From Syntrophales bacterium (GTDB lineage: Bacteria > Desulfobacterota > Syntrophia > Syntrophales > UBA2210), in assembly GCA_963664485.1 (NCBI GenBank), contig OY761459.1:2225949-2289948 (forward strand): a DNA stretch of 64,000 nucleotides, read 5' to 3'. Positions 5,987 through 43,920 of this stretch are shown here, piece after piece. Positions within the stretch are counted from its first letter, which is position 1. Each line of letters opens with the position of its first letter. Made by a program: the position numbers and the translations under genes. The notes under the pieces are model-generated. The model did no database searches. It was not told the DNA's origin and saw nothing but the letters and a program-made list of their open reading frames with translations.

Positions 5987-6215
5987 CTTCCTGATTAGCG
6001 GTTTGAGTGATTCCAATAGCTGGTTATTTTTCGAAGAGCTGTTGATTGATTTTCATATTTAACCCGTTAAAAAGTTCTTTTACATCCAGCTTTCCTTTCA
6101 CAACTCCTTTTATTATCAAATCTTTAGACAGATATTTTTGGTGGTGAATTGTCTGATTAAAGTTTCATTAAGCAAAGGTAAAATAATAAATCCAATTAGA
6201 AAAGGAGGAGTTAAC

Positions 6216-8741: not shown

Positions 8742-8782
8742 CTTTACTTTGAACGAATGAGAACGAAAAAAGGGAGATAAGT

Positions 8783-9187: not shown

Positions 9188-9294
9188 CTGAAAAGCTATG
9201 CCTGGGATGAATAATGAATCATCCCGGGCATAGCCAAAGATTATGGATCTGTACTTGGACTGATGTTGAAATCTGAGAGGAGGAAATTACAAAA

Positions 9295-10245: not shown

Positions 10246-10345
10246 TCATATGAGTACGCGTTTGAATCTCTTAAAAGATCAAAACATGGCAGGGGGTATG
10301 CCAGGATAGACCCCCTGTCATGATACTTAGTTAAAGGTGTCTAAG

Positions 10346-11314: not shown

Positions 11315-11351
11315 CCTAAGGGCCTAAGTAAGTCAGAAAGGAGAAAAAACT

Positions 11352-27343: not shown

Positions 27344-27420
27344 CGGGGCGTAGCGCAGCTTGGTAGCGCGCCTGCTTTGGGAGCAGGATGTCGCAGGTTC
27401 AAATCCTGCCGCCCCGACCA
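27344..27420 (+). tRNA. tRNA-Pro (anticodon TGG), CCA encoded
   Basis: The cloverleaf was folded by hand: acceptor CGGGGCG/CGCCCCG, D stem GCGC/GCGC, anticodon stem CCTGC/GCAGG with loop TTTGGGA, and T arm GCAGG-TTCAAAT-CCTGC. Length 77 nt. Confidence 0.95.
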
Positions 27421-27477: not shown

Positions 27478-29216
27478 TTACTCGAAAGCGAATCCTTCTT
27501 CCCGAAAAAGCGCGATACAGATTTGTGCCACGGAGTCGTCATAGATCCCGTCCGGCACCGGTTTGAATTTCCTTTAGTGCCGCTTCGATTCCCAGGGAAG
27601 GACGATACGGACGGTGCGATGCCATCGCCTCGACGACGTCTGCAACGGCGACAATCTTTGCCTCCATCATGATATCTTTTTCCCTGAGACCCTGTGGGTA
27701 GCCGCTCCCGTCGAGCCGTTCATGGTGTTGATGAACGATATCGGCAATACGGCCAGGGAAAGTCGATTTCCTTTAGCAATTGATAGCCCATTCGAGGGTG
27801 ATCCTTAATTAACTCGAATTCCGTTGCGCTCAGTTTCGACGGTTTGCTTAGAATTTCCGCCGGTATATTGATCTTACCGGCATCGTGAATCGAAGCGGCA
27901 AAGCGGATTCCCATGATGATGTCTTCCGGTAGATTCATTTTTCCAGCGATCGCGCTGGCAAGAGACATGACCCGGATCTGATGTCCTGCCGTATACGGAT
28001 CCCTGAGTTCAACGGCCCTCGCGAGAACCTGGATGGTGCCTTCAAAGGTGGAGAGTATTTGTTTATAGTTTTGGACCAGTTCCCTCTCCGCGTCCTTTTG
28101 CTTTGTTATATCGCGGTAGATGATAAAGTATCCCTCAGTTCTACCGTCGATGATTACCGGTCCTCCCGATATCGAAACATTAACCGCGCCGCCGTCTTTG
28201 CGGTATCGGACCCTCTCGTAATCGCGAACTCCTCCTGCCAGGGATTCCTGGTCGATAGCCCGAGCTTCTTTTATCTGGTCCATTCCCGCGGGAATAACTA
28301 TATCATTAATGTTTTTCCCTCTTATCTCTCCAATCTTATATCCGAACAGATCCAGGAATCCCTGGTTAGCGTCCATTACCCTGCCCTGGAGATTGAGTGT
28401 AACTATTCCTTCGAGGGAATAGTCGAAGATGGATCGAACTCTGGCTCGCTGACGTCTCGCCTCCTGTTCCGCCTTTTTCCGTGGGGTTATGTCACGCAGA
28501 GAGGCGATGAAGCAATCTTTTTTTTCGTATACCGTGCTCGCGACACGCATTTCCACCGAGGTTATTTTCCCCGTTGTACCGACTATGTCTATCTCGGAAT
28601 ATTCCCTTTCGATGACGGGAAATCCGAATTCACGGCCCACCATCTCCCCTGCCGGTCTGCCGAACATTGTTTCAGCGGAACTGTTGATAAAAAGGATAAT
28701 GCCGGAGGAATCGATGATCACGATCCCATCGGCATTTCCCTCGATAACGGTGCGAAACATATTTTCGCTCCGGGCGAGTTCCACCTGTGCCGACTTTCTC
28801 ATCAGGGCGAGTTCTACGGCGGAGTGTATGTCCGTTTTTTGAAAAGGTTTCGTAATAAAGCCGAAAGGGACGGTGGCCATGGCGCGGCTTCGAGTATCGG
28901 CATCGATATCAGCAGTTACATATACAACAGGAATGGCGTAATGCTCTTGGATGTACTTTGCGGCATCTATACCATCCATCTTTCCATAGAGTTTGATGTC
29001 CATCAGGATCAGGTCGGGGGGCTCCCGGCGAACCATTTCAAGGGCGTCTTCTCCTGAACCTGCAATCGATATTCTGCCGTATCCTTCTGACTGAAGTATG
29101 TCCTTGAGATCATGTGCCACGACCGACTCGTCTTCGACGATCAATATATGTAAACGCTCTTTATCCTCTACCATTTTATCCTCCTCGATTCGGGCCGTTC
29201 GCGTCCCCGGGAGCAT
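27478..29216 (-). pseudogene. Response regulator REC-PAS-PAS-HD-GYP (c-di-GMP phosphodiesterase type) disrupted by two +1 frameshifts in the HD-GYP domain
   Basis: The track ORF (27720..29216) ends at ...DFPWPYCRYRSSTP*. The next frame reads IADIVHQHHERLDGSGYPQGLREKDIMMEAKIVAVADVVEAMASHRPYRPS...GAGR. A third frame reads IYDDSVAQICIALFREEGFAFE*, with its stop at 27478. The likely start is ATG 29174, after GAGGAGG. Confidence 0.75.
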
Positions 29217-29403
29217 GTCGTTTCTGTTATCTCGTCCCTTCGGGCATCCGATATCTCTTCAGGAAAAAGGAGTGTTACAATCGTACCTCAACTATCATCA
29301 GCTCTTTTCCAATGGCTTGTGTTGTGAACTGTCATATGTTTCTTGCGTCATCATGTCCCCGGGCCGCGATCAGCCGACATTTCACCGGAAGCATATCCTG
29401 ACA

Positions 29404-29667
29404 TCAGGCCAAATTCAGTATCGATATAATATGCTGTTCATTGCTGATGTCGCCAATCATTTTTCGCTCGGGTGGCGGGGTGGACTTTATCAGTGTGGGT
29501 GTTGCAAAAATATTGTCTCGAAGGCATTGGTCAGGGTTTTCGATTATATCGATAATTTCAAGGAGATATCCCTTGCCGAACCGTTGCGAAAGAATATTAT
29601 GCAGCAGAGTAATAGTGTTTTCCGTTTTCTTGGAACGATTGGAGATGTAAAATTTGAGTTCATTCAT
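29404..29667 (-). CDS. kaiB: KaiB-family protein (thioredoxin-like fold)
   Basis: 87 aa. LKFYISNRSKKTENTITLLHNILSQRFGKGYLLEIIDIIENPDQCLRDNIFATPTLIKSTPPPERKMIGDISNEQHIISILNL is collinear with cyanobacterial KaiB (LKLYVAG.TP.S..A...L..IL......Y.L.VIDVL.NPQLAE.D.I.ATPTL.K.LP.PVRRIIGDLSD.E.VL.GLDL). Confidence 0.85.
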   Translation of the reverse strand: MNELKFYISNRSKKTENTITLLHNILSQRFGKGYLLEIIDIIENPDQCLRDNIFATPTLIKSTPPPERKMIGDISNEQHIISILNLA

Positions 29668-29679
29668 GGCATATTCTCT

Positions 29680-30063
29680 CTAAAATAGTGTTGGTTTTTC
29701 GAGAATACTTCGGGATAACAGCAGGATTTCCTCCGTTCCAACCGGCTTCCTCAACACCTCGAAGTGGACACCATCAGCCACAAGTTGTTTGAGATCGGAA
29801 AAAAATTCTCCGTAAAAAGCCGTTACTATGTATACAGGAACATCCTTGTCCACTTTACGAATTTCTTTCAACACCTCGATACCGTTCATTCCGGGCATCT
29901 TGAGATCAAGGAAAACGAGATGGAAGGAATTGTCTTTGAACAGGCGTATCCCTTCCTCGCCCGATGCCGCAGTTGTCACGGCATATCCTGAATCTTCCAG
30001 GGCAAGCTCAAAAGCAAGCCTGACTGACGAATCGTCGTCGATTACCAGTATATGGCTCTGCAT
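29680..30063 (-). CDS. Single-domain response regulator (CheY-like receiver)
   Basis: 127 aa with the acidic pocket DDD, phospho-acceptor in FLDLKMPGMNG, and conserved T (IVTA) and K (RKP). Confidence 0.9.
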   Translation of the reverse strand: MQSHILVIDDDSSVRLAFELALEDSGYAVTTAASGEEGIRLFKDNSFHLVFLDLKMPGMNGIEVLKEIRKVDKDVPVYIVTAFYGEFFSDLKQLVADGVHFEVLRKPVGTEEILLLSRSILEKPTLF

Positions 30064-30104
30064 CCCTCTTTATCTCCTTAGTTTTTTTATATGCGTATGT
30101 GCCC

Positions 30105-32018
30105 TCATCGTTTAACACCTTTTTGTTGTACCGGCAAGGATATCTCGGCTGTTGTTCCGGCAGCTTGCGTACTTGTGCAGGTTATGGTTCCTCCGTGCCT
30201 TTCGATTATGTTCCTGCTTATAGACAGGCCGAGTCCCGTTCCTTCTCCCACCGGTTTGGTCGTGAAAAATGGATCGAAGATACGACCGATATGTTCTTCC
30301 GCGATGCCGCAGCCGCTGTCGGTGACTCGTATGTGAACGTACCCGTTTTCAATGAAGAACAAAATGTTCAGCAAGTGCTCTTTCGGCGCAAGCTTGAGAG
30401 CGTCCAGCGCGTTTGACATAATGTTCAGGAGCACCTGTTGTATCTCTTCAACCCTCATGGGAATTTCGGGGATGACACCGTCGACCGTTTTCGTCAACAC
30501 GACATTTTCTTTGTCGATGCGATAGCGGAGCAGGCTTTCGACCCGGTCGAAAACATCGGTTATGCATTCCCGGCGCATAGCCGTTTCATGATCCGTCCCT
30601 TCATATCGTGAGAAGGTAAGAAGGTTTTTCACGATGCCGATGGAGCGATTGGTTTCCATTTCGGCGTTCTCCAGCACGAGGGCCTTTTTGTCATCGCCAG
30701 GGGTATGTTTCCGGCAGTACTGGATAAAGTTAAGGATGCCCATCAAGGGGTTATTCAGTTCATGGGCGATTCCTGCCACCAGGGTGCCGAGGGCCGTCAT
30801 CTTTTCCGACTGGATGAGATATGCCTGGGCCTCCTGGAGCTCCCGGGTTTTTTTCTGAACCCTGAGCTCCATCTCGTCGTAGGCCGACTTCAAAGCTGCT
30901 TCCATGCGCTTTCTGTCGGTAATGTCCCGGATCACACCCACGGAGCCTATGTGAATGGCCAGCATCTTGACGGGATTCACTTCATACATACCCGAACTGT
31001 TCACTTCCATCGTGACCAGGTCCCCTTCGATATTTTCGACGACGCCCGGTGAAATGTCCCGATCCTTGCTCTTCGGCACAAGCCGGATTTCCAGGCCTGT
31101 CGTTTTCCGACCCCCCGTCCGTCGCTCGTCCATGAGCTTCGGCGCGCCTTCGTCCCCCGTCTCCAGTCCTTCATATTTCGGCAGGACGATCTCCCGGCTC
31201 GCCGTCTCGACGTCGGCTGGAAGAACTATTGTGCTGAAATGTTTACCTATCAGCTCTCCGGGAGTGTAACCGATGTGACGGATGGCATCGTTGATGAAAG
31301 TAAAATGGCCCGAAGCGTCGATCCGGTAGACAATATCGGGAATGGTGGTAACCAGGTTTTTGAATCGCGCTTCCGAGGCCTTCAACTCGACCAGGCGGTA
31401 TTCGAGTTGTTCGTTTAACCGCGCCAGCTTTTCTTTTGTCTCGACCAGTTCTCTGTTCAGGAGATTGAGTTCCTGATTCTTGTGGATTGCGTTTTCGAAG
31501 GTGGAGAGCAACAGGTTAGTGATCTGTACCCTGTTTGCCGTGATGTTATGTTTTTCTCCGGCGAAAAAAACCTCGAAGGCCGACTCGGAAGGAGATATCT
31601 TCCGGAGTTTTTTGTTCTCCAGTATGGTTTCTATATGTTCGATGAGATACTTTTCGCTGTAAGGTTTGGTGATAAACCCGTCGGCACTGCTGGCGAGTCC
31701 TTTCACAATGTCGGCACGGTCGGTCAGTGCCGTCAGAAGTACCACGGGAATATGCTGGTGCTCGGGATGCGATTTCACTATATTGCACAACTCATACCCG
31801 TCCATGGTCGGCATGATGATGTCACTGATGATAAGGTCCGGAGGCGATATCTCGATCCGCTTGAGAGCCTCCCGGCCGTGGGAGGCTTCCGCAACATGAT
31901 AGCCGTGGCTTTCGAGGAGCTGTAAAAGTATGGCCCGCTGGGTGGGACTGTCTTCCACGATGAGGACAGTCACCGGGTTCTTGCGGTCCGATATCTTAAT
32001 GCCTTTCCTGGGGCTCAT
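30105..32018 (-). CDS. Hybrid sensor histidine kinase (N-terminal REC, coiled coil, PAS, HisKA, HATPase_c)
   Basis: REC (LIVEDSPTQR...DIIMPTMDG), H-box GIAHELNNPL, and N/G boxes (NIMSNALDA, DSGCGI, GTGLGLSIS). Confidence 0.9.
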   Translation of the reverse strand: MSPRKGIKISDRKNPVTVLIVEDSPTQRAILLQLLESHGYHVAEASHGREALKRIEISPPDLIISDIIMPTMDGYELCNIVKSHPEHQHIPVVLLTALTDRADIVKGLASSADGFITKPYSEKYLIEHIETILENKKLRKISPSESAFEVFFAGEKHNITANRVQITNLLLSTFENAIHKNQELNLLNRELVETKEKLARLNEQLEYRLVELKASEARFKNLVTTIPDIVYRIDASGHFTFINDAIRHIGYTPGELIGKHFSTIVLPADVETASREIVLPKYEGLETGDEGAPKLMDERRTGGRKTTGLEIRLVPKSKDRDISPGVVENIEGDLVTMEVNSSGMYEVNPVKMLAIHIGSVGVIRDITDRKRMEAALKSAYDEMELRVQKKTRELQEAQAYLIQSEKMTALGTLVAGIAHELNNPLMGILNFIQYCRKHTPGDDKKALVLENAEMETNRSIGIVKNLLTFSRYEGTDHETAMRRECITDVFDRVESLLRYRIDKENVVLTKTVDGVIPEIPMRVEEIQQVLLNIMSNALDALKLAPKEHLLNILFFIENGYVHIRVTDSGCGIAEEHIGRIFDPFFTTKPVGEGTGLGLSISRNIIERHGGTITCTSTQAAGTTAEISLPVQQKGVKR

Positions 32019-32037
32019 AATGTTGCTCCTGCCATTG

Positions 32038-33126
32038 TTAGCCTGTCTTCAGTTGATTGATAACAAGCGCGATTCCCTCGGGGTCGAGGAGGTATTCTGC
32101 CGCGCCTATTCGCTCGGCTTCGCCGGGCATGCCGTATACCACAGCGCTTTCACGGCTCTGCGCCACCGTGAGAGCGCCTTTATTTCTCATCATTTTCAAT
32201 TCCGCCGCCCCGTCGACCCCCATCCCGGTAAGGATGATTCCCGCGGCTCTTGATCCGTAGACTTTTGCAACGCTTCCAAAAAGGTGCGATACGGAAGGGC
32301 AGATATGTAATGTCCCGGTGCCGCGATACAGGCGTATTCTGCCGGTGCCGGTAACTCCCATATCAAAGTGATCGGGGGCGAAGTATACTCCTCCGGGCCG
32401 TAATTGCTCGCCGTCGGCCGCGATATAAACCGCCTTCTTCGTTGTTGCAGCGAGCCAGTCCACAAGCCCTTGGAGAAATCCCTCGGCGATATGCTGTACG
32501 ATCACAATGGGCGGGTTCTTTCCGTCCGAATCGATCCCCTCCAGAATTTGACGGACGGCAGCGGGACCGCCTGTCGAAGCTCCTATGGCTACGATCTCGA
32601 TCTTGTGCATCTCTTTTTCTGTAACGCCCGGGGATACCGAATCGACAGGGGCTTTTCGATACCTGGTATGGCGCTTGACAACCTTGATCTCCGACATGAG
32701 CTTGACCATTTTGATTAGCTCTCGGACATCTTTTTCATGGTGCGGGTGACCGATACCCTTCGGTTTCTGCAGCACCGTCAGCGCTCCCGCCTCGAGTGCC
32801 CGGAACACCGTTTCCTGCGAGTAGGGGTTCCAACTCGCCGTAACGATGACGATGGGAAGAGGGTCTTTCGCCATAATTCTTCGCGTTGTCTCGAAACCGT
32901 CCATGTCGGGCATGTTGATGTCCATGGTGACAAGATCGGGCTTCGAATGTGCGAGAAACTCCAGGGCCTCTGCGCCGTGTTTTGCCGCGCCTATTACCTC
33001 TATCTCAGGATCGGAATCGAGGATGTGTCGGAGAAATTCCCGCGCTACGATGGAATCCTCGACTATCAGCACCCGAATTAATCTCTTCTCTTTCTTATTA
33101 ACTCTGTTATTAATTGCTTTTTTCAT
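32038..33126 (-). CDS. cheB: Chemotaxis protein-glutamate methylesterase (REC + CheB catalytic domain)
   Basis: RVLIVEDS...DINMPDMDG receiver, then GASTGGP and the catalytic region. 4-nt overlap with the cheA stop. Confidence 0.9.
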   Translation of the reverse strand: MKKAINNRVNKKEKRLIRVLIVEDSIVAREFLRHILDSDPEIEVIGAAKHGAEALEFLAHSKPDLVTMDINMPDMDGFETTRRIMAKDPLPIVIVTASWNPYSQETVFRALEAGALTVLQKPKGIGHPHHEKDVRELIKMVKLMSEIKVVKRHTRYRKAPVDSVSPGVTEKEMHKIEIVAIGASTGGPAAVRQILEGIDSDGKNPPIVIVQHIAEGFLQGLVDWLAATTKKAVYIAADGEQLRPGGVYFAPDHFDMGVTGTGRIRLYRGTGTLHICPSVSHLFGSVAKVYGSRAAGIILTGMGVDGAAELKMMRNKGALTVAQSRESAVVYGMPGEAERIGAAEYLLDPEGIALVINQLKTG

Positions 33127-35441
33127 ATCAGTCTTTCAATCACTTCGATCAGGTTGCTCTGATCGAAACTGCTTTTGACGATATAGGCATCCGCCCCTGC
33201 GTCGATGCCTCGCTTTTTGTCTTCCGGAGATTCCAGGGCCGTGACGAGAACGACGGGTGTTTCGGCGTAACGACGATCAGTCTTGATCTTTGCCGTCAGA
33301 TCAAAGCCGTTCATGCGCGGCATGTCCACGTCGGTTACGACCAGGTCGGCTGGATTTTCCAGCAGCTTCGTGAACCCTTCGATACCGTCGTTTGCGGTCA
33401 TCACCCGGTAGCCGGCGCCTTCAAGAATGTTTTTTAGCAGCATCCTCGCTGTGATGGAATCTTCCACGACAAGAATGGACTTCGGCTCCGCCTGACGGAG
33501 ATCCCCTCGCGCCTCCTGTAGAGGAGAGACGCTCTCCGCCGGTCTGATGCCCTTTACCAGGGCAGAAACACTGATGACGGGAACCACCCTGCTTGACCCG
33601 AGGACTGCGGCGCCGTTGAAGTGACGAACGAACGAGAGCTGAGCGTCGAAGCTTCGGACCAGAACCTCCTCCTCACCCAGTATTTCGTGAACGGCGACGG
33701 CGATTTGCTCACTGCCGGAGGAGACGATAAGTACCGTTGAAGCCGGCTTCTCGTCTTTTTTCGCCGGAAGGGAAAGAAGTTCCGCCAGCGCAATCAACTG
33801 CAGCGAAACCCCGTCATGGCGAATGGTGCGAGTTCCTTTTACGAAAAAAATGTCATCATTCTCCAACTTTTGTGCCCGTACCACCGCCGCGGTGGGAATA
33901 ATAAATTCGTGATCGTAGACACGGATCCGCACTCCTCGAAAGGTAGCCCGGGTCAGAGGAATGACCACCCTGAAAGTCGTTCCGACTCCCAGCTGTGTTT
34001 CGGCGATATCTATGAATCCACCGAGTTGTTCGATTTTTTCGCGCGCGATGGCCAGACCCAGTCCCCGTCCGGACAGATCGGTGATGAAATCGCTCGTCGA
34101 AACCCCGGAAAAGAAGATCAACTCCAGAGCGTCTTCCCTGCTCAGGGTTTTCCTGCTTTTTACCTCAACATGTCCCGCCTTCCGGGCGGCCAGTCGTATC
34201 TTGTCTTCGTCCAGACCTTGCCCGTCGTCTGAAAAGAGAATTTCCGCCCTGTTTTCCTCGATCCGGTTTACGACAATCGAGATGGTCCCCACGGGAGATT
34301 TTCCCCTGGAGATACGGATCTCCGGGGTCTCGATCCCGTGGTCGATACTGTTTCGTATGAGGTGGAGAAAGGGGTCTCGCATCTCGTCGAGAATGCGGCG
34401 GTCTATCTCGATATCGGCCCCCGAGAAACGAAGCTCTGCGCGTCGTTTTTTCTCCCGGGACAGATCGCGAACAATCTTTGGAAATGTTGTAAGGAGTGAT
34501 GAGAAGGGGAACATCAGGATATTCTTGACATCGTCCAGAAGTGCGTCGATGATTATCCCCGCACCGTGGCTGTCATGGAACGCTCTCGTCCCTATGCCTG
34601 AGAGATTTTTTTCGACGGATATAATGGTTGTGTAGAGTTGATCGAAATAACCGACTGTCTCGCTGTCGTGGCCGGGCATGCCGGACGAAGAGGCCCTTTC
34701 CCGCTGTTTCAACAAGTGAAGGGCTTTCAGCCAGCGAATTCGCATGGTGCCGATCAGGTCGAGGACCGCACGGAGCTCTTGATCCCGTTCCAGAAGCGAA
34801 CGCTTCAGCCCGATTAATTCTTCCGTCTGTGAGAGAACGGCGTCAAGCCGGGATACGGAAACGCGTATCGAGTCCGAAGTAACGGATGTGATTTGCGGTG
34901 AGGGAAACGCCGAGTTTTCTTCTCCGGCAGCGCCTTCCGCCATGATGTGTTCCGGGAGCGTTTCCCGGGATTCCAACTTCGCCGCGAAGGAAGGTGAGGG
35001 TGGCGTTTCCTCTTGTGCTGTTTTTTCTTTAGGGAATTCGTTTTGCGTCTTCGCAATCATGGCGATTTGTTTGATCACCTCCGAAATGGGAGGGGGACTT
35101 GTTTGCTCCGAGGCCGATAATTGGCCCGCGATGGCGCTCACGGCGAGGTGAAGTTTGTCGTAAAAGTCCTGTGTCGGTGTGATATCTTTTTTCTTCATTG
35201 ATGCAAAGATCGTTTCCATTGCCTGGCAGAGTTGTTCCACTTCGGAGAAGTGCACCGCCCTGGACGCTCCTTTCAGGCTGTGGGTCGCCCGGTAGACGGT
35301 TTCGATAATCGTCTCCGTTCTCGCCGTATCGACGCCCTGTTCCATTTCGAGAAGCCCGTCCGTTATTGCCTTGAGGTGGTCACTCGCCTCTGCACGATAG
35401 ATCTCGATCAGCTTCTTCATGAAGGTCTCATCACCTGCCAC
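33123..35441 (-). CDS. cheA: CheA-type histidine kinase fused to a C-terminal receiver (WspE-like CheA/Y hybrid)
   Basis: Hpt (ATHSLKGASRAV), HATPase (HLIRNSIDHGIE, DDGQGLD, GRGLGL), CheW-like domain, and C-terminal REC (ILVVEDSITAR...DVDMPRMNG). Confidence 0.9.
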   Translation of the reverse strand: MAGDETFMKKLIEIYRAEASDHLKAITDGLLEMEQGVDTARTETIIETVYRATHSLKGASRAVHFSEVEQLCQAMETIFASMKKKDITPTQDFYDKLHLAVSAIAGQLSASEQTSPPPISEVIKQIAMIAKTQNEFPKEKTAQEETPPSPSFAAKLESRETLPEHIMAEGAAGEENSAFPSPQITSVTSDSIRVSVSRLDAVLSQTEELIGLKRSLLERDQELRAVLDLIGTMRIRWLKALHLLKQRERASSSGMPGHDSETVGYFDQLYTTIISVEKNLSGIGTRAFHDSHGAGIIIDALLDDVKNILMFPFSSLLTTFPKIVRDLSREKKRRAELRFSGADIEIDRRILDEMRDPFLHLIRNSIDHGIETPEIRISRGKSPVGTISIVVNRIEENRAEILFSDDGQGLDEDKIRLAARKAGHVEVKSRKTLSREDALELIFFSGVSTSDFITDLSGRGLGLAIAREKIEQLGGFIDIAETQLGVGTTFRVVIPLTRATFRGVRIRVYDHEFIIPTAAVVRAQKLENDDIFFVKGTRTIRHDGVSLQLIALAELLSLPAKKDEKPASTVLIVSSGSEQIAVAVHEILGEEEVLVRSFDAQLSFVRHFNGAAVLGSSRVVPVISVSALVKGIRPAESVSPLQEARGDLRQAEPKSILVVEDSITARMLLKNILEGAGYRVMTANDGIEGFTKLLENPADLVVTDVDMPRMNGFDLTAKIKTDRRYAETPVVLVTALESPEDKKRGIDAGADAYIVKSSFDQSNLIEVIERLI

Positions 35442-35489
35442 GGCGATTTTTCCTCCTTCAAATTACCGTGATTTTGAACCTGTTCCGTT

Positions 35490-37553
35490 CTATACCCTGT
35501 ACTGCTTCACCATTTCCTTGAGCCTCATCCCCAGCTCGTGCAGGTCTTGAATGGCCCGCTCCATCTGTTTCGTACTGGAGGCTACCTGGACGCTGGCCTC
35601 CTTGATATTCTCCATAGCGGCGGCTACCTGTTCCATTCCCACCTGCTGCTGTTGACTCGATGCCGTGATCTGAACCGAGGCGTTTGCTGCTTCATCGACA
35701 TTCTCGGCAAGTGTATTGATCACTCCCTCAGATTTTTGCAGTAGCGCCAGGCCAGCTTCCACAGACTTGTTACCCTGCTCGGTGGACATGACTGCGGTGC
35801 TTATGGACCGCTGAATATCGTTCAGGATATTCCTGATCTGTACCGTTGCCTGTTTTGACTGGTCGGAGAGACTCTTCATCTCCTGGGCGACGACGGAAAA
35901 GCCCCGTCCCTGTTCTCCGGCCTTCGTCGCTTCGATGGAGGCATTAACGGCCAGAAGGTTCGTCTGTTCCGTAAGACCCGTTACCGTCGCGGTAATTTCT
36001 CCGATGGACCGGCTCTGTTCACTGAGTTGTATCACCGTATCGGCTATGCCCCCCATCTGCTCCCGGACGCGATTCATTCCTGCCAGGGCTTCACGGATCG
36101 CCTCGATCCCGTCCTGGGATGTTTCGGTTGCCTGGCGTCCCAGTTCCGATACTTGTGCCGCCTTTTTCGACGAGAGCTGAGCCGTCTGTTTCACTTCCTC
36201 TACGGTCGCCGTCGTCTGGCTGACCGCGGTGGAAGTCTCGGCGGTGCTGGACGAAACCTGTGCTACGGATGCCATGATCTCGCTTGTCGAGGACGAGAGG
36301 ACGTTTGTCGCTTCCTGTATTTCAGATATCTGCCGTCTCATTCTATCAAACATCACTGAAAAAGCTTTCCCGAGGATGTCCCGTTCGGATCTCGGTGCCA
36401 ATTTCTCCGTGAGATCCCCTGTCGCCCCTTTGTCGGCCGCTGCAGCTATAGTCTTCATTGCTTCGGTCGTTTCCCTCATTGCCGAGAGCATCTCTCCCAG
36501 TTCGTCTTTGCCCCCCTCGGCAATGGGAATGTCCGTGTCGCCGATGGCGAGAGCATTTGCGGCATCGACGACCGTGGTGATCGATCGCGAGATGTTTAAG
36601 GCGAACAAGTAGAAGAAAAGGGATGCCAGAATCAGCGCCGCAATGCCGATGGAGATGATCAGGGCGGCAAGACCTCTGCCCGGTGCAAGAAGCTCTTCCA
36701 TGGGGAAAATAGCTATAACCTTCCATCCCGTCGTGGGGACCGTCGAGAAAGCGCAGAATTTTCGCAAGTTTTGGGAGGTATATTCGAGGGAATGGGCGGT
36801 TATGCTGCCGGGTGAAGTGATGATTTTTTCGAGGTTTTTGTCAATATCGGAGAGTGACATGGTAAGGATGCGCGATTCCTCGGGATGGACGATATAGGTA
36901 CCTTTTTCATCGGTAAGATAAACATACCCCGTCTCCCCCACGTGAATGGTGCTCACAAGCTTTTTCAGGTAGTCGAGCCAGATGGCCATTACGACGGCGC
37001 CCGAAATCTCTTTACCGTCTGACGTATAGACGGGATATGCGACTGTACAGATGAGTTTCCCTGTCGCTGCGGAGTGAACGACGGCGCCGACGAAGGGGGT
37101 CCCACCCAAGGCCGATTTCAGGTAGGCCCTCGATGATAGATCGACACCTGCGTATTTCCCGTCGTCGCTGGAAGCAAAAATATGACCGGTCTGTCTGCTT
37201 ACCAGTGAGACACTGGAAAATCTGTCGCCTGCCGACGCCTTGATATTGTTGAGTTCGGCCTGTACGGTTATGATTTCTTTTTGTCCCTCTGCCACGCCTG
37301 AACGGAACACCTTTTCCGCGGCAGCGATGGTACTTTGAGAAAATGAGATATTTCGTGCCGTAATGAGCTGTTCCTGCATATACATATCGATCATGCGTGT
37401 GGTGCTTTCATCTATTGCTGCTACGGATCGCTCGCGGTTTTCAAAGAGCTTTTCCGTCGACTGGCGGACCGACACGATGCCGATCACCAGGATGGGAAGC
37501 ACGACGGCCGTCAATCCTCCCAATAAAAGCTTTCTTTTCAGTGTCAATTTCAT
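35490..37553 (-). CDS. Methyl-accepting chemotaxis protein with periplasmic Cache-like sensor, HAMP and MA domains
   Basis: Two TM segments bracket a ~270-aa periplasmic domain. The conserved signalling hairpin is EATKAGEQGRGFSVVAQEMKSLSDQS. Confidence 0.9.
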   Translation of the reverse strand: MKLTLKRKLLLGGLTAVVLPILVIGIVSVRQSTEKLFENRERSVAAIDESTTRMIDMYMQEQLITARNISFSQSTIAAAEKVFRSGVAEGQKEIITVQAELNNIKASAGDRFSSVSLVSRQTGHIFASSDDGKYAGVDLSSRAYLKSALGGTPFVGAVVHSAATGKLICTVAYPVYTSDGKEISGAVVMAIWLDYLKKLVSTIHVGETGYVYLTDEKGTYIVHPEESRILTMSLSDIDKNLEKIITSPGSITAHSLEYTSQNLRKFCAFSTVPTTGWKVIAIFPMEELLAPGRGLAALIISIGIAALILASLFFYLFALNISRSITTVVDAANALAIGDTDIPIAEGGKDELGEMLSAMRETTEAMKTIAAAADKGATGDLTEKLAPRSERDILGKAFSVMFDRMRRQISEIQEATNVLSSSTSEIMASVAQVSSSTAETSTAVSQTTATVEEVKQTAQLSSKKAAQVSELGRQATETSQDGIEAIREALAGMNRVREQMGGIADTVIQLSEQSRSIGEITATVTGLTEQTNLLAVNASIEATKAGEQGRGFSVVAQEMKSLSDQSKQATVQIRNILNDIQRSISTAVMSTEQGNKSVEAGLALLQKSEGVINTLAENVDEAANASVQITASSQQQQVGMEQVAAAMENIKEASVQVASSTKQMERAIQDLHELGMRLKEMVKQYRV

Positions 37554-37608
37554 GGAATCCTCCTCGCGTCAGGTTCTTGCCGGGCTTTACTGAATGAGCC
37601 CTGTTATG

Positions 37609-38181
37609 CTATAGGGAACCAACGATTCCCCCTTTGATAATATCCGAACCGAGAATCTTCTCCGTGTCGAGGATGATGATCTTTTCATTTGTGACGCCGG
37701 AAAGAAACTCGATCTTCTTTTCCTTCATGGTGGACGGAACCGGATGAACATGAGTGTTCCGGATAGATATGATACCCTCTATTTCATCCGTGAGAACGCC
37801 CATCTCCATCCCCCCATGAGAGAGTATAACGATCTTGTTGAATTCGGTGATACCCCGTTCAGGGAGGTGAAAGAGCCTCTTGAGGTCGATTACCGACAGG
37901 ATCCGGCCTCTTACATGAGTAATCCCCGCGATGAACGGGGGGACACCGGGGAGAAATGTCAGCGAAGTGAGTGGAAGGACTTCCCGCACGTAGGTCATAT
38001 GAAAGGCGTACCGTTCAAAGGCGAGCGAAAATACCAGGAAATCCCGCAAGCCGGCCGGGTCTTCAAGCGGGAGACGCTCCTTCGCGTAGAAAATGGCCCG
38101 TTCATGAAGGATCTTCTTCTTGGCCAGGTTGTCGGAGTTGCCCGGTATGGTACTTGTTCCTGCGGCCGTTTGTCTCTTCAC
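37609..38181 (-). CDS. cheW: CheW-like coupling protein
   Basis: 190 aa with the CheW-domain pattern (FLVFSLAFERYAF...GITHVRGRILSVIDL). Confidence 0.85.
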   Translation of the reverse strand: MKRQTAAGTSTIPGNSDNLAKKKILHERAIFYAKERLPLEDPAGLRDFLVFSLAFERYAFHMTYVREVLPLTSLTFLPGVPPFIAGITHVRGRILSVIDLKRLFHLPERGITEFNKIVILSHGGMEMGVLTDEIEGIISIRNTHVHPVPSTMKEKKIEFLSGVTNEKIIILDTEKILGSDIIKGGIVGSL

Positions 38182-38191
38182 GTATCCCTTT

Positions 38192-39694
38192 TCACCTCTT
38201 ATTTGTCATGTTTTCTCCCTGCAGTGTTTCTACTATTTCTCTCAGCCGTCCCGCTGTCATGCCTTCCGACTCCGGCAGGATTTCACCTGCGTCGCAGCGA
38301 TTGAGAAGGGCAAGCGTATGCGCATAGTGACGGGATGCCGCTACTGCGCCACCTTCATCCCGGGCGATATTTCCGAGCGAAAAATGGGCGAGAACGTGAC
38401 GCGGATCGAGATAAAGCACCTTTTTTAAAGCGGCTGTCGCTTCTTTCTTCCGGTTCATCTCCTCGAGAATCATGGCCCTGAGAAAATAAGGCGAGGGTTT
38501 GAGCGTATCCTCGGAGAGGGCCTCGTCGCACAGCGCCAGTGCCTCGTCGAGAGCTCCCCGGCCAGCCTTTATACGGGCACTGGAAATCAGTTCGTCCGCC
38601 TTGTTGTACCCTTCCGGCGGCGATGTTTCATACGCTGATGGAGTCGCGACGGTACGATGGCCATGACTCGTCGTAACCGTCGCCCCCCGCGCGGGAGAGG
38701 ACTTCTGGGACGATCTGAAAGGTTTGAGACATACAGGCGCAACGTTTCGTTTCTTTCTTGACACCCGCACCGGAATTTCTCCGCTTTGAGCGAAGTGTTC
38801 CAGTCGATCTTCGTGAGAGGAGTGAGAATCCTTTTGATATAAAGTGACGTCATTGTAGTGGAGAGATCGGAATGATGAAAAAAGGAAAGAAGAGATTTCC
38901 ACCGGGCTTACGATAAGATACCCTCCTTCGGAGAGGCAGCGATAAAAACGTTCCACCGTCGAGGCAAAGTAGTCCGGGGAAAAATACATGAGCACGTTTC
39001 GGCACAGTATGAGATCCATTCCGGAGGTGTTGTTGATGAGTGAGGGATAAATATCCTCCGAAAGGTTAAGATATGTGAAGGTAACCATATCGCGTATGTG
39101 CGCCTTAATTTCAAAGCGGTCCTGTTTTATATTCGTGAAGCAGGAATCCTTGACCCACTTGGGGGTATTTCGAAAAGACCACTTTGAGTAAATGCCCATG
39201 CGGGCCCTTTCGAGGATCTCTCGATTGATATCGGTGGCGAGGATCGTAATATGCCACTGTTCCTTTTCGGAAAGGATTCGGTCGAGGAGAATCGCCAGTG
39301 AATACGGCTCCTCTCCCGTGGCACAGCCGGCGCTCCAGATCCTGAGGTATCTCCCCTGGTCTTTCTTGGATGCAATAAGCTCCGGTAACAGCTTCATTTC
39401 AAGCATTTCGAAAAGAGAAGCGTCTCTGAAAAAAAAGGTTTCGCTGGTAGTCAGATACCCGACAAGGCTGTCGAGCGTTGTGTGATCGATCGAAGAAGAG
39501 AGTAGAGAATGGGTGAATGCAACGGGATCGTCGTGTCCCATCCCCCTGGCGGCCATATCGAGTCGCTGGGCGAGATCTCGATAGTTTTTTTTCTCGAAAT
39601 CAAGCCCTGTTGCCCGGCGGATAAAATCGCCGGCCTGTGAAAGCAGATCTTCCGGAATGGCACGATGGTTTGTCTGTTCGGATCGTTTATCCAT
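38192..39694 (-). CDS. cheR: Chemotaxis methyltransferase CheR with C-terminal TPR extension (WspC/FrzF-like)
   Basis: CheR SAM-binding region (RIWSAGCATGEEPYSLAILL) plus about 120 aa of TPR-like C-terminus. It overlaps the upstream cheW by 8 nt. Confidence 0.9.
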   Translation of the reverse strand: MDKRSEQTNHRAIPEDLLSQAGDFIRRATGLDFEKKNYRDLAQRLDMAARGMGHDDPVAFTHSLLSSSIDHTTLDSLVGYLTTSETFFFRDASLFEMLEMKLLPELIASKKDQGRYLRIWSAGCATGEEPYSLAILLDRILSEKEQWHITILATDINREILERARMGIYSKWSFRNTPKWVKDSCFTNIKQDRFEIKAHIRDMVTFTYLNLSEDIYPSLINNTSGMDLILCRNVLMYFSPDYFASTVERFYRCLSEGGYLIVSPVEISSFLFSSFRSLHYNDVTLYQKDSHSSHEDRLEHFAQSGEIPVRVSRKKRNVAPVCLKPFRSSQKSSPARGATVTTSHGHRTVATPSAYETSPPEGYNKADELISSARIKAGRGALDEALALCDEALSEDTLKPSPYFLRAMILEEMNRKKEATAALKKVLYLDPRHVLAHFSLGNIARDEGGAVAASRHYAHTLALLNRCDAGEILPESEGMTAGRLREIVETLQGENMTNKR

Positions 39695-40211
39695 CCTGCT
39701 CTACCTTTCTCTTCTTTCCCGGCTTAGCAGATTGTTTTGTCTTTGTAAGCTGAAAAAGCGCCTCATCAAGATGGATTTCTTCCTCTGATGAAAGAAAGGA
39801 GTCGAGATCGTGGATATAGACGAGCCCGTCATCGAGTATTACCACTCCGGATATGGGCCCGTTTATTCCAGGTATGGTGTCCTGAGGAACGATTCGAGCT
39901 TCCGGGTAGTCGAAAACACCGGCGACATCGTCGACGACGAGCAGGATAGTCCTGTTACGCGTTTTTGCAACGATGAAACTGTCGCCAGGATCCAGGTCAC
40001 GTTCCGAGAAACCGAAGCGACGGCGTGTGTTGAAAACGGGAAGTAGAGTTCTTTCCAGATTTATGAGACCCGCGACGGCGAAGGGCGCGTTGGGGAGAGG
40101 GGTGATTTCCATTGCAGGAAGAACCCGTACTACCGCAGGTAGGTGAAGGGCGAATCGTTGTGTGTCAAGGGTAAATATGACAAGCTGCATTATAACACTC
40201 TCTTTCCTCAC
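39687..40211 (-). CDS. cheW: CheW-like coupling protein (first gene of the che operon)
   Basis: CheW pattern LVIFTLDTQRFALHL...VAGLINLERTLLPVF. The track start is GTG 40211; ATG 40190 (MQLVIF) is a plausible alternative. Confidence 0.8.
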   Translation of the reverse strand: MRKESVIMQLVIFTLDTQRFALHLPAVVRVLPAMEITPLPNAPFAVAGLINLERTLLPVFNTRRRFGFSERDLDPGDSFIVAKTRNRTILLVVDDVAGVFDYPEARIVPQDTIPGINGPISGVVILDDGLVYIHDLDSFLSSEEEIHLDEALFQLTKTKQSAKPGKKRKVEQDG

Positions 40212-40682
40212 GTGAACTGCAGTAAAATGAATGAGTGCGCCTTGTGTGAGTGTTAAAACCTTATCTGCCTATTCCAATATCCCTTTTTATCCATACTGCG
40301 TTTATACGGGTATAAATGCTGGCATTATACAAGTATTATTAATTGTATGCAAAGAATATTTGGGTTGGTTAGGTAAAAAGCGTGCAGAATCATTCATACT
40401 GCCACAAGGTGGAATATGTCTTTCATTGTCATTAAAACCATAAGAAGCATTCTTACAGCGATCCTTTTTAATGAAGCGGCAAAACTTTATCATAGCCATT
40501 GAAATACAACCTTATGGTGAAAGATACTGAATATTTGTAATATGTTGCAGTACTTTTGCCTGAGCCAATCGATAAACGATGCATTGTATATATTGACAAC
40601 GTGTTCAGGGGCTAGTAGCCTCTAAACAAGAAACAACACATTTAGATAGAAAACATTTTATAAACCGGTGGAAAGGAGAAGA

Positions 40683-41036
40683 ATGACCATGAAAGTCGAT
40701 TTTTACTGTTGGACATCTTGAAGCACCTGTCGCAAAGCGAGAGAGTTTCTCTTGCAGAAAGGGGTTGAAGTAAACTATCACGACTTCTTCAAGAACCCTT
40801 TTAGTCGAACGGAGATCGAAAACCTGCTCCAGGGAAATCCGGTTTCTGAGATGTTCAATTTTCGAAGTCCCAGCTTTAAGAAAATGGGTTTGGAGGAGGG
40901 TGTCTTGACCGATGATGAACTCATGGAACTCATTCTGAAAGAACCTCGCCTTATTCGCCGCCCCGTTGTCCGTATCGGCGGAAATGTATATTTCGGAGCC
41001 AACAGTAAAGCTCTGGAAAAGATCAGTCAAAAATAA
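40683..41036 (+). CDS. ArsC/Spx-family thioredoxin-fold protein with in-frame UGA (probable selenocysteine; UxxC motif)
   Basis: The track ORF (40752..41036, TTG start, no RBS) lacks the family's N-terminal redox motif. ATG 40683 follows an AAGGAG RBS and is in frame. It reads MTMKVDFYCWTS-TGA-STCRKAREFLLQKGVEVNYHDF, with the TGA at 40719-40721 at the position of Spx Cys10 in CxxC(RKA). Confidence 0.7.
40737..40755 (+). promoter_or_regulatory. SECIS-like hairpin 15 nt downstream of the in-frame UGA
   Basis: GCGAGAG-AGUUU-CUCUUGC forms a 7-bp stem (one G.U). The small apical loop contains G and U. Its distance from the UGA is within the range expected of bacterial SECIS elements. Confidence 0.45.
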
Positions 41037-41109
41037 TATTTAAGACCCAGTTTCCGGCCTGGGGAAAGTGATTGTTTGATAAACTGTTTCGCAGAGATGC
41101 TTCTGACTG

Positions 41110-41988
41110 CTACCTCTCGTGATCGTAGGCAGGCCGACGCTCGAACTGAAGTTTACTTTCTCTCTGCTCCGGATAAAATTCTCTCTGCCCATGGGGCGAA
41201 TGCTCCTCCCGGGGCTTTTCAGAATGAATCTTTTCCCCGGTATGCTGTACTTCGGGCCGCTGTCCAACCTGGGGTTTCTTCGGCTGATTAATCTGTTTTT
41301 CTCTTCCGGACTGTCCCTGTTGAAATTTCTGTACCGGTTTTTCTCTCTGCGGATTCTTGTCTTGAAATCGTTTATCAATTTGGTCAATCTCAGGTTGATG
41401 TCTCAACGGGGGATTGTAACGCTGATCGGGCTGTTCTTTCTGAGGCTGTCTCTTATAATATTCACTTTGTTTCTGTTGTATTAACCCCTGCTTCTGTTGT
41501 TGCGACCGAGGTTGATAGTTTTCTACACCCCAGGTCCCCCGTTTTTCCCAATGCCTGTCATCCTGCCAGCTCTTCCAGTGCTGTTTAAGTTTGTGATGGG
41601 GAATCCTTTCATAGTTCCAGTTGTGCCCGTACCAGTTATGATTTCTGTAGCAGTTTCTCCAGCCCACGAAAAAATCAAAATAGAAACTCGGAACGGCATT
41701 ATAGTAATACCAGTCATGGTCGTAATACCTTGAGCGATACCAGCGGTTATTCCATGAACGCCACCACCATCCATCCCAGAAATACAAATCGAAATTTATG
41801 TCGGGGACAGCGTAAACGTAATACGTATCGGGAATCACTATAACGTGGGGGGGACCATTGAACTCAATCGGCGGCGGTTCACCGTAATTTTGATCATAAT
41901 AAACCGGTTCGGGACCAGCGTAGCAGCCTTGTAGAAACAGGAACAGCAATATTACGGCAAATACTTTTGACATTTTTATCTTGTCCAT
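41110..41988 (-). CDS. Putative lipoprotein with Trp/Tyr-rich core and Gln/Lys/Glu/Pro-rich tail; function unknown
   Basis: Signal plus lipobox-like sequence (LLFLFLQGC). The aromatic block is YFWDGWWWRSWNNRWYRSRYYDHDWYYY...NHNWYGHNWNY, and the C-terminal half looks disordered. Opposite-strand ORFs are low-complexity shadows. Confidence 0.6.
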   Translation of the reverse strand: MDKIKMSKVFAVILLFLFLQGCYAGPEPVYYDQNYGEPPPIEFNGPPHVIVIPDTYYVYAVPDINFDLYFWDGWWWRSWNNRWYRSRYYDHDWYYYNAVPSFYFDFFVGWRNCYRNHNWYGHNWNYERIPHHKLKQHWKSWQDDRHWEKRGTWGVENYQPRSQQQKQGLIQQKQSEYYKRQPQKEQPDQRYNPPLRHQPEIDQIDKRFQDKNPQREKPVQKFQQGQSGREKQINQPKKPQVGQRPEVQHTGEKIHSEKPREEHSPHGQREFYPEQRESKLQFERRPAYDHER

Positions 41989-42142
41989 GGCTTTTACCTT
42001 TTCCCTTATATGAACGTCTTATGTAGTCCGTCATGAAACAAGTTTTTCAGCCAAAAGAATTTTGCCATATTTTATGCTTCCTTCGAAGCTGCTTCTTGTT
42101 TTGCCGGTGCGCTGAAACTCTTTCGCCTCGATGATCCGTTAT

Positions 42143-42478
42143 CTATCGATGCCGATGGTCCTGTCGATGGTGATGAGGAATCTGGTGTCTTCGATAATCC
42201 CGATGACCAGTTCTTTTTTGAGGTACATACCTATAGTGGGGCGGATTCACATGACGAGGATAAACGTAAACCGGTCCGGGCGGATAATAAACTCGAATGG
42301 GAGGAGGAGCATTATAAACATACGCGCAACATGGATCAGTTGCTTCAGCAATAACAGTTCCCATTATAATACCTCCAACAATCGCTAACGGCACCCATTC
42401 ATCACCAGCTTCACTCTGCTTAGGTACAGTCAAACCCAGCATTAAAACTGCCAGTACGATAACTATAAAACGTTTCAT
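42143..42478 (-). CDS. Small exported/membrane-anchored Pro/Tyr-rich protein with His/Arg-rich tail; function unknown
   Basis: AAGGAGG RBS before ATG 42478 (MKRFIVIVLAVLMLGLTVPKQSEA signal). Followed by a hydrophobic segment, YVYNAPPPIRVYYPPGPVYVYP, and the C-terminus HQIPHHHRQDHRHR. Confidence 0.55.
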   Translation of the reverse strand: MKRFIVIVLAVLMLGLTVPKQSEAGDEWVPLAIVGGIIMGTVIAEATDPCCAYVYNAPPPIRVYYPPGPVYVYPRHVNPPHYRYVPQKRTGHRDYRRHQIPHHHRQDHRHR

Positions 42479-42635
42479 GAGTAACACCTCCTTTGGTTTT
42501 TCAGACGTTCGGTTCAAAGTTAAAGTTTACATGACCTGTTATAATAAGTGATCGCTATCTCATTTTTACTATCTACCCGCAACCCCTGATCAATATATTG
42601 AAATAAAGAAAATTTTTGATTATCATGCAAATATT

Positions 42636-43100
42636 ATGAACGTACAGCTGATCATAATCCTGTTGATTGGTATCCTGGCAGTCATAATACTCGTGACAAG
42701 GCTTGCCGGCGGTCGTTACGGGAAGCTCTATCCCGGTCAGAACGTCCCTGGATCCGATGCCCCTTTCCGAGTCGACCCGGAGAAGCATTATTACGTCAGT
42801 GGACCTGATTTATATCCCAACGCTTTACTGGGCCTGAACAAGGACTGGGTGTTGAAATCCGATTTATGGAAAAAAAGGGAACTTGACGATGTAGGAATAA
42901 AAGAACTCGTTTTAAACATGCAGGACAGAGCAATGGAAAAGTCGCTTTTTCTTCATGAATTCGATGTCCTCGATGATCGGGGGATGAAGATCGGTGATTG
43001 GTATTCTATAATGGGCCTGCACATCGTGATAAAAATTCTGGATGAGAAGAAAGTTTCCATTACGACACCACCCCTTGATATATACACGGTGACCAAGTAA
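42636..43100 (+). CDS. Hypothetical protein with single N-terminal TM segment
   Basis: 154-aa ORF with N-terminal hydrophobic helix (LIIILLIGILAVIILV). No family recognised. Confidence 0.5.
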   Translation: MNVQLIIILLIGILAVIILVTRLAGGRYGKLYPGQNVPGSDAPFRVDPEKHYYVSGPDLYPNALLGLNKDWVLKSDLWKKRELDDVGIKELVLNMQDRAMEKSLFLHEFDVLDDRGMKIGDWYSIMGLHIVIKILDEKKVSITTPPLDIYTVTK

Positions 43101-43239
43101 AAAGATATTTTCATGTACAAAATCATATCTCCGGGGAAAACATCAACTCCCCGCGTAGTTGGCAAATTGATTTTCCCGCAGCCGATCGTATTTCTTGTAA
43201 AAAACATTTGATAAGCGCCCAACTATAATTGCTTTAAAA

Positions 43240-43788: not shown

Positions 43789-43920
43789 GTCCTGGTTTTC
43801 CTGGTTCTTTAAACCGATGATTCCCGTTTATCACGCCCGAAAACGGCAGGTCAACAAGATGCTTCTCCGGTACGCTTTTTTCAATGTATACCATTTTTTA
43901 TCTCACCATATAAAATTTCT

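Follow-up and report, generated by a model that had tools for sequence, protein, structure and literature searches.

A chemosensory gene cluster that continues into a kinase, receiver and KaiB module in a Syntrophales bacterium

Introduction

Two described chemosensory systems come close to the gene cluster considered here, a run of ten genes from cheW1 to an HD-GYP gene, all on the minus strand, in a 64-kb stretch of the 2.59-Mb genome of a Syntrophales bacterium (contig OY761459.1, positions 2,225,949 to 2,289,948; hereafter the window, to which all coordinates and calls refer). The Che3 system of Rhodospirillum centenum comprises two CheW proteins (CheW3a/b), CheR3, the receptor MCP3, a CheA3-REC hybrid, CheB3, the REC/PAS kinase CheS3 and the single receiver CheY3. 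Phosphorylated CheA3 passes phosphate to the first receiver of CheS3, a REC-REC-PAS-HWE kinase, and inhibits it, and CheY3 is phosphorylated by CheS3, not by CheA3 (PMC3868531, PMC4436063). The Wsp system of Pseudomonas and clusters classed under alternative cellular functions (ACF) contain two CheW, a CheR with a TPR tail, one chemoreceptor, CheA-REC and CheB, together with a multidomain receiver linked to cyclic di-GMP (c-di-GMP), and have no motility genes nearby. Wsp itself ends in a single REC-GGDEF protein, for c-di-GMP synthesis.

The window encodes the same set as Che3, a likeness in composition. The differences lie in the kinase and the output: CheS3 joins two receivers to an HWE-class kinase, whereas the window kinase has one receiver and a HisKA (PF00512), AtoS-like core, and Che3, whose output is cyst formation, has neither KaiB nor HD-GYP. 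The window also shares the Wsp/ACF set, but in place of c-di-GMP synthesis it has a REC-kinase relay and a REC-HD-GYP protein of the degrading type, and its receptor carries a dCache_1 domain. A sequence-only reading of this DNA had seen a Wsp-like operon with an unusual four-protein output (hybrid kinase, lone receiver, KaiB, HD-GYP protein) and no characterised counterpart. The last statement is wrong for the che, kinase and receiver part because of Che3, where a matching composition comes with demonstrated phosphotransfer among CheA3, CheS3 and CheY3. As for the output, REC-kinases, single receivers and REC-HD-GYP proteins are common after cheB in relatives, and only KaiB is unusual. Chains of che genes, kinase and receiver, with or without HD-GYP, are known and common among ACF clusters; what is new is the receiver-KaiB module with its dedicated kinase core.

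KaiB is known to us almost only as a part of the KaiABC clock. The receiver-fold partners of the cyanobacterial protein are the pseudo-receiver of CikA and the N-domain of KaiA, and SasA has a KaiB-like domain. A passage in PMC12632262, citing Tseng 2017, places fold-switched KaiB on the alpha1-beta2-alpha2 face of the receiver-fold CikA pseudo-receiver. The roles of many homologues outside cyanobacteria have been described as unresolved (PMC10808063). The reading preferred here, to which we give a probability of about 0.55, is that in this lineage an ACF pathway of che genes and REC-kinase was spliced onto a separate module of kinase core, receiver and KaiB, with signal flowing as proposed below.

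The kinase gene behind cheB

A scan with the window CheA-REC as query returned 80 loci at 37-44% identity, 44% being the best CheA match in the genome collection. They come from Syntrophia, Geobacterales, Desulfobulbales, Nitrospirota, Bacteroidota, Ignavibacteriota, Planctomycetota, spirochaetes, methanotrophs and several archaeal metagenome-assembled genomes (MAGs). With the window domains mapped onto the loci, most of the 80 show the order cheW-cheR(TPR)-cheW-mcp-cheA(REC)-cheB-REC-kinase. Pfam searches of the first gene 3' of cheB found a REC domain in 50 of 52 loci, HATPase_c in 40 and HisKA in 38, with kinases of the HWE and HisKA_2 types in only two loci each. The second gene (37 loci) encodes a REC domain in 24 cases, HD-GYP in four, EAL in three and GGDEF in one, and 13 of 44 loci have an HD-GYP domain on the same strand at a distance of up to 8 kb. 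According to a survey from 2012, a HisKA/HATPase module is present in about 40% of the receivers of cheR-TPR clusters (PMC3447774).

The post-cheB proteins share a receiver and a linker with the motif LLLSTYE.A.QKN.EL. Against che-linked kinases the window kinase is 47-57% identical in the REC head and 40-53% identical in the linker, while kinases linked to KaiB (loci L099-L101) have no comparable match to either part. Because head and linker are 40-57% identical to the post-cheB gene in many phyla, the kinase is assigned to the che system, and the comparison supports the view that this downstream gene belongs with the che genes. The catalytic core points the other way, with 44-49% identity to the KaiB-linked kinases versus 29-37% to the che-linked ones, and its H-box is nearly identical to that of the KaiB-linked group (LIQSEKM.ALGTLVAG.AHELNNP). 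Judged by these alignments, the kinase is a mosaic, a che-type REC/linker head on a catalytic core of the KaiB-module type, and would mark the splice point of two systems. A core swap of this kind in a relay kinase shows how chemosensory pathways get rewired. Among NCBIfam models the core is nearest AtoS/ZraS and the single receiver nearest the receivers of AtoC, NtrC and PorX; a core and receiver of these types would look like a cognate pair.

Five relatives carry the same chain without KaiB. Loci L020 and L031 (Geobacteraceae, Desulfobulbus MAG) read cheB-REC-HK-REC-REC-REC-HD-GYP (HK, histidine kinase), and L002, L003 and L008 (Syntrophia) read cheB-REC-HK-REC-GAF-PAS-HD-GYP. All five are like the window in gene order through the REC-kinase and in the head of REC and linker; in the place of KaiB, L020 and L031 carry a second single receiver. 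With 29-37% and 26-30% identity to the window, the kinase cores and single receivers of these loci fall into other subfamilies, and their HD-GYP domains are 54-61% identical to that of the window in the three Syntrophia loci and about 35% in the other two.

The receiver and KaiB

The single receiver keeps D9, D10, D53, T81 and K105 intact, has Val at the position of CheY Tyr106 and an altered alpha-4 region. Its identity to receivers adjacent to KaiB is 43-70%, versus 26-30% to the single receivers of che loci. The KaiB homologue that follows is a true member of its family, by its Pfam score and by its match to KaiB chains in the PDB (E about 5e-17 over residues 4-86). An AlphaFold2 (AF2) model built from 119 homologues has a predicted local distance difference test score (pLDDT) of 95 and a beta-alpha-beta-alpha-beta-beta-alpha, thioredoxin-like fold, and in structure it comes closest to Legionella KaiB and to fold-switch-stabilised KaiB in its complexes. 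The protein is thus like cyanobacterial KaiB in family and in its predicted thioredoxin-like, partner-binding fold. It is unlike it in that the candidate partner is a phosphorylatable receiver and not a pseudo-receiver, in that no kaiC or kaiA is adjacent, and in its chemosensory and two-component context. A role of this KaiB as a redox thioredoxin was considered and ruled out, as there is no CxxC motif and only one Cys.

Receivers paired with KaiB recur elsewhere. The nearest case is L089, an 8-kb metagenome contig with a kinase, a REC protein (128 aa), KaiB (87 aa) and an intact REC-PAS-PAS-HD-GYP protein (564 aa), which are 71%, 70%, 56% and 57% identical to their window counterparts; it carries the nearest HD-GYP orthologue with flanking sequence. 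Other contigs hold tandem pairs, pairs beside HD-GYP and GGDEF genes, and pairs behind che genes (Table 1). The long contigs were picked for size alone, and che genes are present in three of the four that have enough upstream sequence. Paralogous REC-KaiB pairs duplicate as units. Four proteins of 218-231 aa in which REC and KaiB are fused came out of an exhaustive HMMER search; their REC and KaiB halves are 37-50% and 37-41% identical to the window proteins. The search also yielded a fusion of KaiB with a CheC-like region. The REC and KaiB distance matrices correlate (14 pairs, Mantel r=0.73, p=2e-4), a value inflated by related organisms. HD-GYP is associated with the pair in three contexts: the window, L089 and L097. 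A scan of metagenomes for KaiB with a two-sequence alignment gave four loci, a five-sequence alignment being too divergent, and neither the window KaiB nor its cluster representative had an exact match on contigs.

These recurrent pairs and fusions lend comparative support to the earlier suggestion that KaiB acts as an adaptor in the middle of the pathway. In the library of PMC and bioRxiv papers that was searched, neither REC-KaiB pairs or fusions nor a KaiB within che clusters is described. The pair, seen as adjacent genes, tandem duplicates and fusions, behind a dedicated kinase, chemosensory clusters and c-di-GMP enzymes, would add a new kind of element to ACF outputs. A KaiB subfamily paired with a true receiver also offers a concrete non-clock role to test, that of partner to a phosphorylatable receiver.

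Base composition sets the pair somewhat apart. GC and GC at third codon positions (GC3) are 0.46 and 0.50 for the receiver gene and 0.41 and 0.47 for kaiB, with GC3 of 0.56-0.65 in cheR to cheB and the kinase and of 0.50 in cheW1; the lower values hint at a separate origin of REC-kaiB.

Several further observations concern KaiB and its partners. The REC and kaiB ORFs (open reading frames) of the window (29404-30063) lie in one reading frame, parted by TAG and four codons, and look like a split form of the natural fusion proteins (P0268, P0282, P0385, P0379). In L099 (3-2370) and L102 (8308-11494) the kinase is fused to a KaiB-partner receiver (REC-HisKA-HATPase-REC, 562 aa), with a tandem KaiB-REC-KaiB-REC after it. 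Protein P0350 of the representative library (509 aa) has an N-terminal KaiB domain fused to a region like CheC, of the CheY-P phosphatase family, and would be a further link of KaiB to CheY-type signalling.

Proposed flow of signal

An array of the Cache receptor would control CheA, with CheR-TPR and CheB providing adaptation. By analogy with CheA3 and CheS3, phosphorylated CheA would phosphorylate the N-terminal receiver of the REC-PAS kinase and so switch the kinase core, and the receiver of CheA itself would serve as a phosphate sink. The AtoS/NtrB-like core may then phosphorylate the adjacent single receiver, as the conserved triad and the kinase-REC fusions of L099 and L102 suggest. KaiB in its thioredoxin fold would bind the receiver, probably depending on phosphorylation, and buffer, delay or redirect the signal. 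The ancestral end point would be the REC-PAS-PAS-HD-GYP c-di-GMP phosphodiesterase. We infer the phosphotransfer steps and the REC-KaiB contact alike; KaiB is proposed as the binding partner of a phosphorylatable receiver because of adjacency, duplication, fusions and the known binding of KaiB to the receiver-fold domain of CikA.

A number of observations weigh against this proposal. To our knowledge all characterised KaiB proteins act through KaiC, and L100 has a kaiC gene some 9 kb upstream of its KaiB. AF2 tends toward the fold-switched state of KaiB (PMC10808063), and for that reason the model of the window protein speaks for compatibility with the partner-binding fold and not for a preferred state. 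The AF2 model of a REC-KaiB fusion (four sequences; pLDDT 72, predicted TM-score 0.54) has low confidence in the fold-switching half of KaiB and gives no confident inter-domain geometry. The kinase ORF of L089 runs off the contig start inside the che-type linker. Finally, none of the 80 distant che loci has KaiB at the equivalent position (one has it elsewhere), so that for this lineage the link of che genes to KaiB depends on the window itself.

The absence of KaiB from those loci also fits an account in which adjacency means nothing: a mobile REC-kaiB cassette would have inserted between the kinase and HD-GYP genes of an ordinary ACF operon, the broken HD-GYP gene being its decaying tail. 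The low GC and GC3 of the two genes relative to cheR-cheB and the kinase, and the pseudogene state of the gene downstream (see below), agree with this. However, the catalytic core of the kinase is itself of the KaiB-module type, which puts the join inside the kinase gene and does not allow a simple cassette insertion. The four-gene block is also kept in L089 at 56-71% identity with its genes intact, a kinase-REC-KaiB set follows an unrelated class of che cluster in L100-L102, and the REC and KaiB ORFs of the window are intact with all key residues. We consider a chance insertion highly unlikely.

Could KaiB act here through a KaiC hexamer encoded elsewhere? The receiver and KaiB would then form an input or output branch between the chemosensory kinase cascade and a KaiBC hourglass or a timer of energy state. 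Among relatives linked to KaiC, those nearest to the window KaiB (37-40% identity) stand in REC-protein-KaiB-KaiC or KaiB-KaiC arrangements, and in L100 KaiC lies in one gene run with che-Hpt-kinase-REC-KaiB. Outside cyanobacteria, kinase or GGDEF/EAL genes usually follow kaiBC (PMC3164672), and KaiB has been reported only alongside full-length KaiC (PMC5520375). Yet no kaiC was found in the Pfam scan of window ORFs, and none adjoins KaiB in L089, L097, L099 or L102. The window KaiB falls well below the NCBIfam cut-offs for circadian KaiB equivalogs (NF006798, 60.7 versus 110 bits; TIGR02654, 58.9 versus 145.3 bits), and together with the L089 protein it departs from the family at nearly invariant positions (G10N, T12S, A48C). 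REC-KaiB fusions and tandem duplications, moreover, suggest that the receiver is the direct partner. Action through KaiC seems unlikely on this evidence; it is compatible with the spliced pathway proposed here and does not exclude it. In L100 (1-10318) KaiC starts a same-strand run that reaches REC-HK-REC-KaiB, a possible KaiC-che-KaiB supercluster.

A broader claim can be put forward only tentatively, at somewhat less than even odds. REC-KaiB may be a widespread, undescribed two-component module that is independent of KaiC, in which KaiB is a phosphorylation-dependent partner of the receiver, and which has its own kinase subfamily and was recruited more than once behind chemosensory kinases and beside c-di-GMP enzymes. 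The window would be its first example in a complete genome with a visible join. In such a module KaiB could possibly serve as a slow, fold-switching delay element.

The interrupted HD-GYP gene

The operon was first read as ending in a REC-PAS-PAS-HD-GYP protein that controls c-di-GMP degradation. The gene is present as the tenth of the cluster, but it is not one ORF from 29216 to 27478: two +1 frameshifts, read through unmentioned, interrupt it. The first frame halts at 27720 after ...DFPWP and spans positions 2-94 of the 170-position HD_5 model. A second frame, which runs to about 27540, carries the HHERLDGSGYP motif (IADIVHQHHERLDGSGYP...HRPYRPSLG), and a third holds the last 22 codons (IYDDSVAQICIALFREEGFAFE*), ending at 27478. 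No uninterrupted HD domain with an HHExxDGxGYP motif is encoded; the motif is there, out of frame. The alignment with the intact L089 orthologue follows frame -2 as far as 27750 and then frame -3 between 27760 and 27551. Deletion of one base at each site restores an ORF of 578 aa, and the nearest homologues are intact at 564-575 aa. The likelier start is ATG 29174, which comes with a GAGG site and agrees with where the L089 orthologue begins.

The two frameshifts cut off the catalytic GYP half, so that the c-di-GMP output has probably been lost in this genome unless they are sequencing errors, and the proposed control of c-di-GMP degradation is not supported for this sequence. The assembly is not generally error-ridden, because the other Pfam-matching ORFs of the window cover nearly all of their main models. 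Against this background, a pair of lesions 200 bp apart within a single gene favours a recent pseudogene. Programmed frameshifting was considered and ruled out, as it would need two separate +1 events and there are no slippery sites.

If the frameshifts were local sequencing or assembly errors, the gene would be intact and a working c-di-GMP phosphodiesterase would form the end of the operon, contrary to the reading preferred here. Both lesions are single extra bases, the second within a GGG run, and the shifted frames are free of additional stops and of decay and keep all the catalytic motifs (H, HD, H, HHERLDGSGYP, D); the orthologues are intact as well. Against this, the lesions lie less than 200 bp apart in one gene while some 40 other Pfam-matching ORFs are nearly full length, the first is a T inserted between G and A and no homopolymer error, and the truncated product of 498 aa is the version on record for the source contig. 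An intact gene is therefore doubtful. A recent pseudogene, as favoured above, carries its own caution, since the idea of an appealing c-di-GMP output arose from a sequence in which that output is probably a pseudogene.

The next-closest HD-GYP homologues (49-53% identity; L086-L088, L091-L092) lie in a different conserved context of def, peptidase M29, REC-PAS-HD-GYP, REC and a PAS-GAF protein, which contains neither che genes nor KaiB.

Class of the chemosensory core

Domain calls for the ten ORFs are all well above Pfam thresholds. The TPR matches of CheR are weaker (E about 2e-5, below Pfam cut-offs; residues 403-433), and this part of the protein is kept in relatives. The receptor belongs to the 40-heptad class: counted from Glu547 at the tip, its C-terminal arm is exactly 140 residues long, and compared with the 36-heptad receptor Tsr it has two symmetric insertions of 14 residues; the arm has the identical size in 47 of 59 receptors of relatives. 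All phospho-acceptor residues are kept in the CheA receiver, and all five receivers of the cluster keep the acidic pair, the acceptor Asp, the Thr and the Lys. NCBIfam matches of CheA, CheW and CheB are generic only; CheB scores 304.9 bits against the subfamily model NF001965 (cut-off 293).

Receptors of 40 heptads are used by ACF systems, though not exclusively, and some flagellar and pilus systems also have this class. By Pfam the cluster has a CheA with a C-terminal REC domain, a CheR-TPR and multidomain receiver outputs. Multidomain receivers have been described as a distinctive feature of ACF clusters, CheR-TPR proteins as occurring predominantly in clusters of this type, and CheA-REC as a further ACF feature (PMC3447774); CheA/Y clusters of Geobacter have been likened to Frz, Wsp and R. 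centenum Che3 (PMC2577667). Read from gene composition, the class of the cluster is supported as a non-flagellar ACF-type Che pathway of a widespread, described kind. This agrees with the first assignment, for which two CheW, CheR-TPR, CheA-REC, the 40-heptad receptor, multidomain receivers and a lack of motility genes nearby can all be named. In the strict sense it is not Wsp, because the REC-GGDEF protein is missing and no GGDEF domain occurs in the cluster.

The single receiver, of CheY size and with intact active-site residues, might instead be the CheY of a system for chemotaxis by flagella or type IV pili and act on a motor whose genes lie elsewhere; the 40-heptad class would allow this, and the window covers 64 kb of a 2.59-Mb genome. 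Such a role is at odds with the ACF features just listed and with the receiver itself, which falls in the KaiB-partner subfamily, with Val in place of Tyr106 and the altered alpha-4 region. The Pfam scan, which covered 45 ORFs of the window, matched no flagellar or pilus family, as the sequence-only reading had noted, and there is no CheZ, CheC, CheD or CheV near the cluster. The cluster type is also found in diverse MAGs, including archaeal ones. A motility role is the least probable of the alternatives weighed here.

Four archaeal MAGs (L015, L021, L061 and L072; Methanosarcinales, ANME-2, Methanomicrobiales, Methanospirillum) carry the identical cluster type, which suggests inter-domain transfer of this type of pathway.

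Layout and surroundings

The ten ORFs are consecutive on the minus strand, with the short gaps and overlaps first reported. From cheW1 to HD-GYP the spacings are -8, 10, 55, 48, -4, 19, 41, 12 and 187 nt, the last becoming 229 nt with the likelier HD-GYP start. The likelier start of cheW1 is ATG 40190, with an AAGGAA ribosome-binding site, the GTG 40211 of the longest ORF having none. The candidate promoter 5' of cheW1 sits in an AT-rich stretch (GC 0.35), and no sigma-54 consensus was found upstream of this gene. No minus-strand terminator is predicted in the kaiB-HD-GYP gap. Apart from a tRNA-Pro, no Rfam family, c-di-GMP riboswitches included, matched in the window; this convergent tRNA (27344-27420) bounds the cluster on the HD-GYP side.

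Table 1. Features of the chemosensory cluster and arrangements of REC-KaiB loci on other contigs
Feature	Positions	Strand	Evidence or remark
cheW1	39687..40211	-	Pfam CheW E=8e-26
cheR with C-terminal TPR tail	38192..39694	-	Pfam CheR E=3e-47; overlaps cheW1 by 8 nt
cheW2	37609..38181	-	Pfam CheW E=6e-30
Chemoreceptor (dCache_1, HAMP, 40-heptad signalling domain, MCPsignal)	35490..37553	-	Pfam
cheA-REC hybrid (Hpt, HATPase_c, CheW-like, REC)	33123..35441	-	Pfam
cheB (REC and methylesterase)	32038..33126	-	Pfam; overlaps cheA by 4 nt
REC-linker-PAS-HisKA-HATPase kinase, 637 aa	30105..32018	-	Pfam
Single-domain receiver, KaiB-partner subfamily, 127 aa	29680..30063	-	Pfam REC E=6e-24
KaiB homologue, 87 aa	29404..29667	-	Pfam KaiB (PF07689) 75.8 bits, cut-off 27; 12 nt after REC
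REC-PAS-PAS-HD-GYP gene, disrupted by two +1 frameshifts	27478..29216	-	Uninterrupted ORF only 27720-29216
Frameshift site 1, extra T (...CCG T ATT GCC...; L089 PWPIAEIV), about 27749	27745..27755	-	Premature TGA 27720-27722
Frameshift site 2, extra G in or next to GGG run (GGA CGG G ATC TAT), about 27547-27549	27545..27551	-	Stop about 27540
Sigma-70-like promoter candidate, TTTGCA-18-TATAAT	40324..40353	-	Consensus scan only
L093			REC-KaiB-REC-KaiB
L094			REC-REC-KaiB
L095			kinase end-REC-KaiB-REC
L096-L098			REC-PAS-HD-GYP - REC - KaiB, REC-GGDEF nearby
L099, L102			CheD-CheB-CheA-CheC-Hpt-[REC-HisKA-HATPase-REC]-KaiB-REC-KaiB-REC
L100, L101			KaiC ... CheW-CheY-CheD-CheB-CheA-CheC-Hpt-REC-HK-REC-KaiB

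Directly 5' of the operon lies an AT-rich stretch (40212-43900, GC 0.35-0.44) with five ORFs of 141, 292, 124, 154 and 200 aa; a Pfam scan of four of them, with the 124-aa ORF left aside, gave no match. The flanking genes are housekeeping genes (ispG, proS, relA/spoT, amidase, rph, rdgB) and a TetR-OEP-HlyD-ABC efflux set. Further away, a 154-aa ORF at 5401-5865 on the minus strand has only HTH_32/HTH_29 domains and resembles an N-terminal transposase fragment. On the plus strand, 6138-13154 encodes a PFL-like glycyl-radical enzyme, a radical-SAM activase and an aldehyde:ferredoxin oxidoreductase side by side, and because of this row the host is evidently a strict anaerobe.

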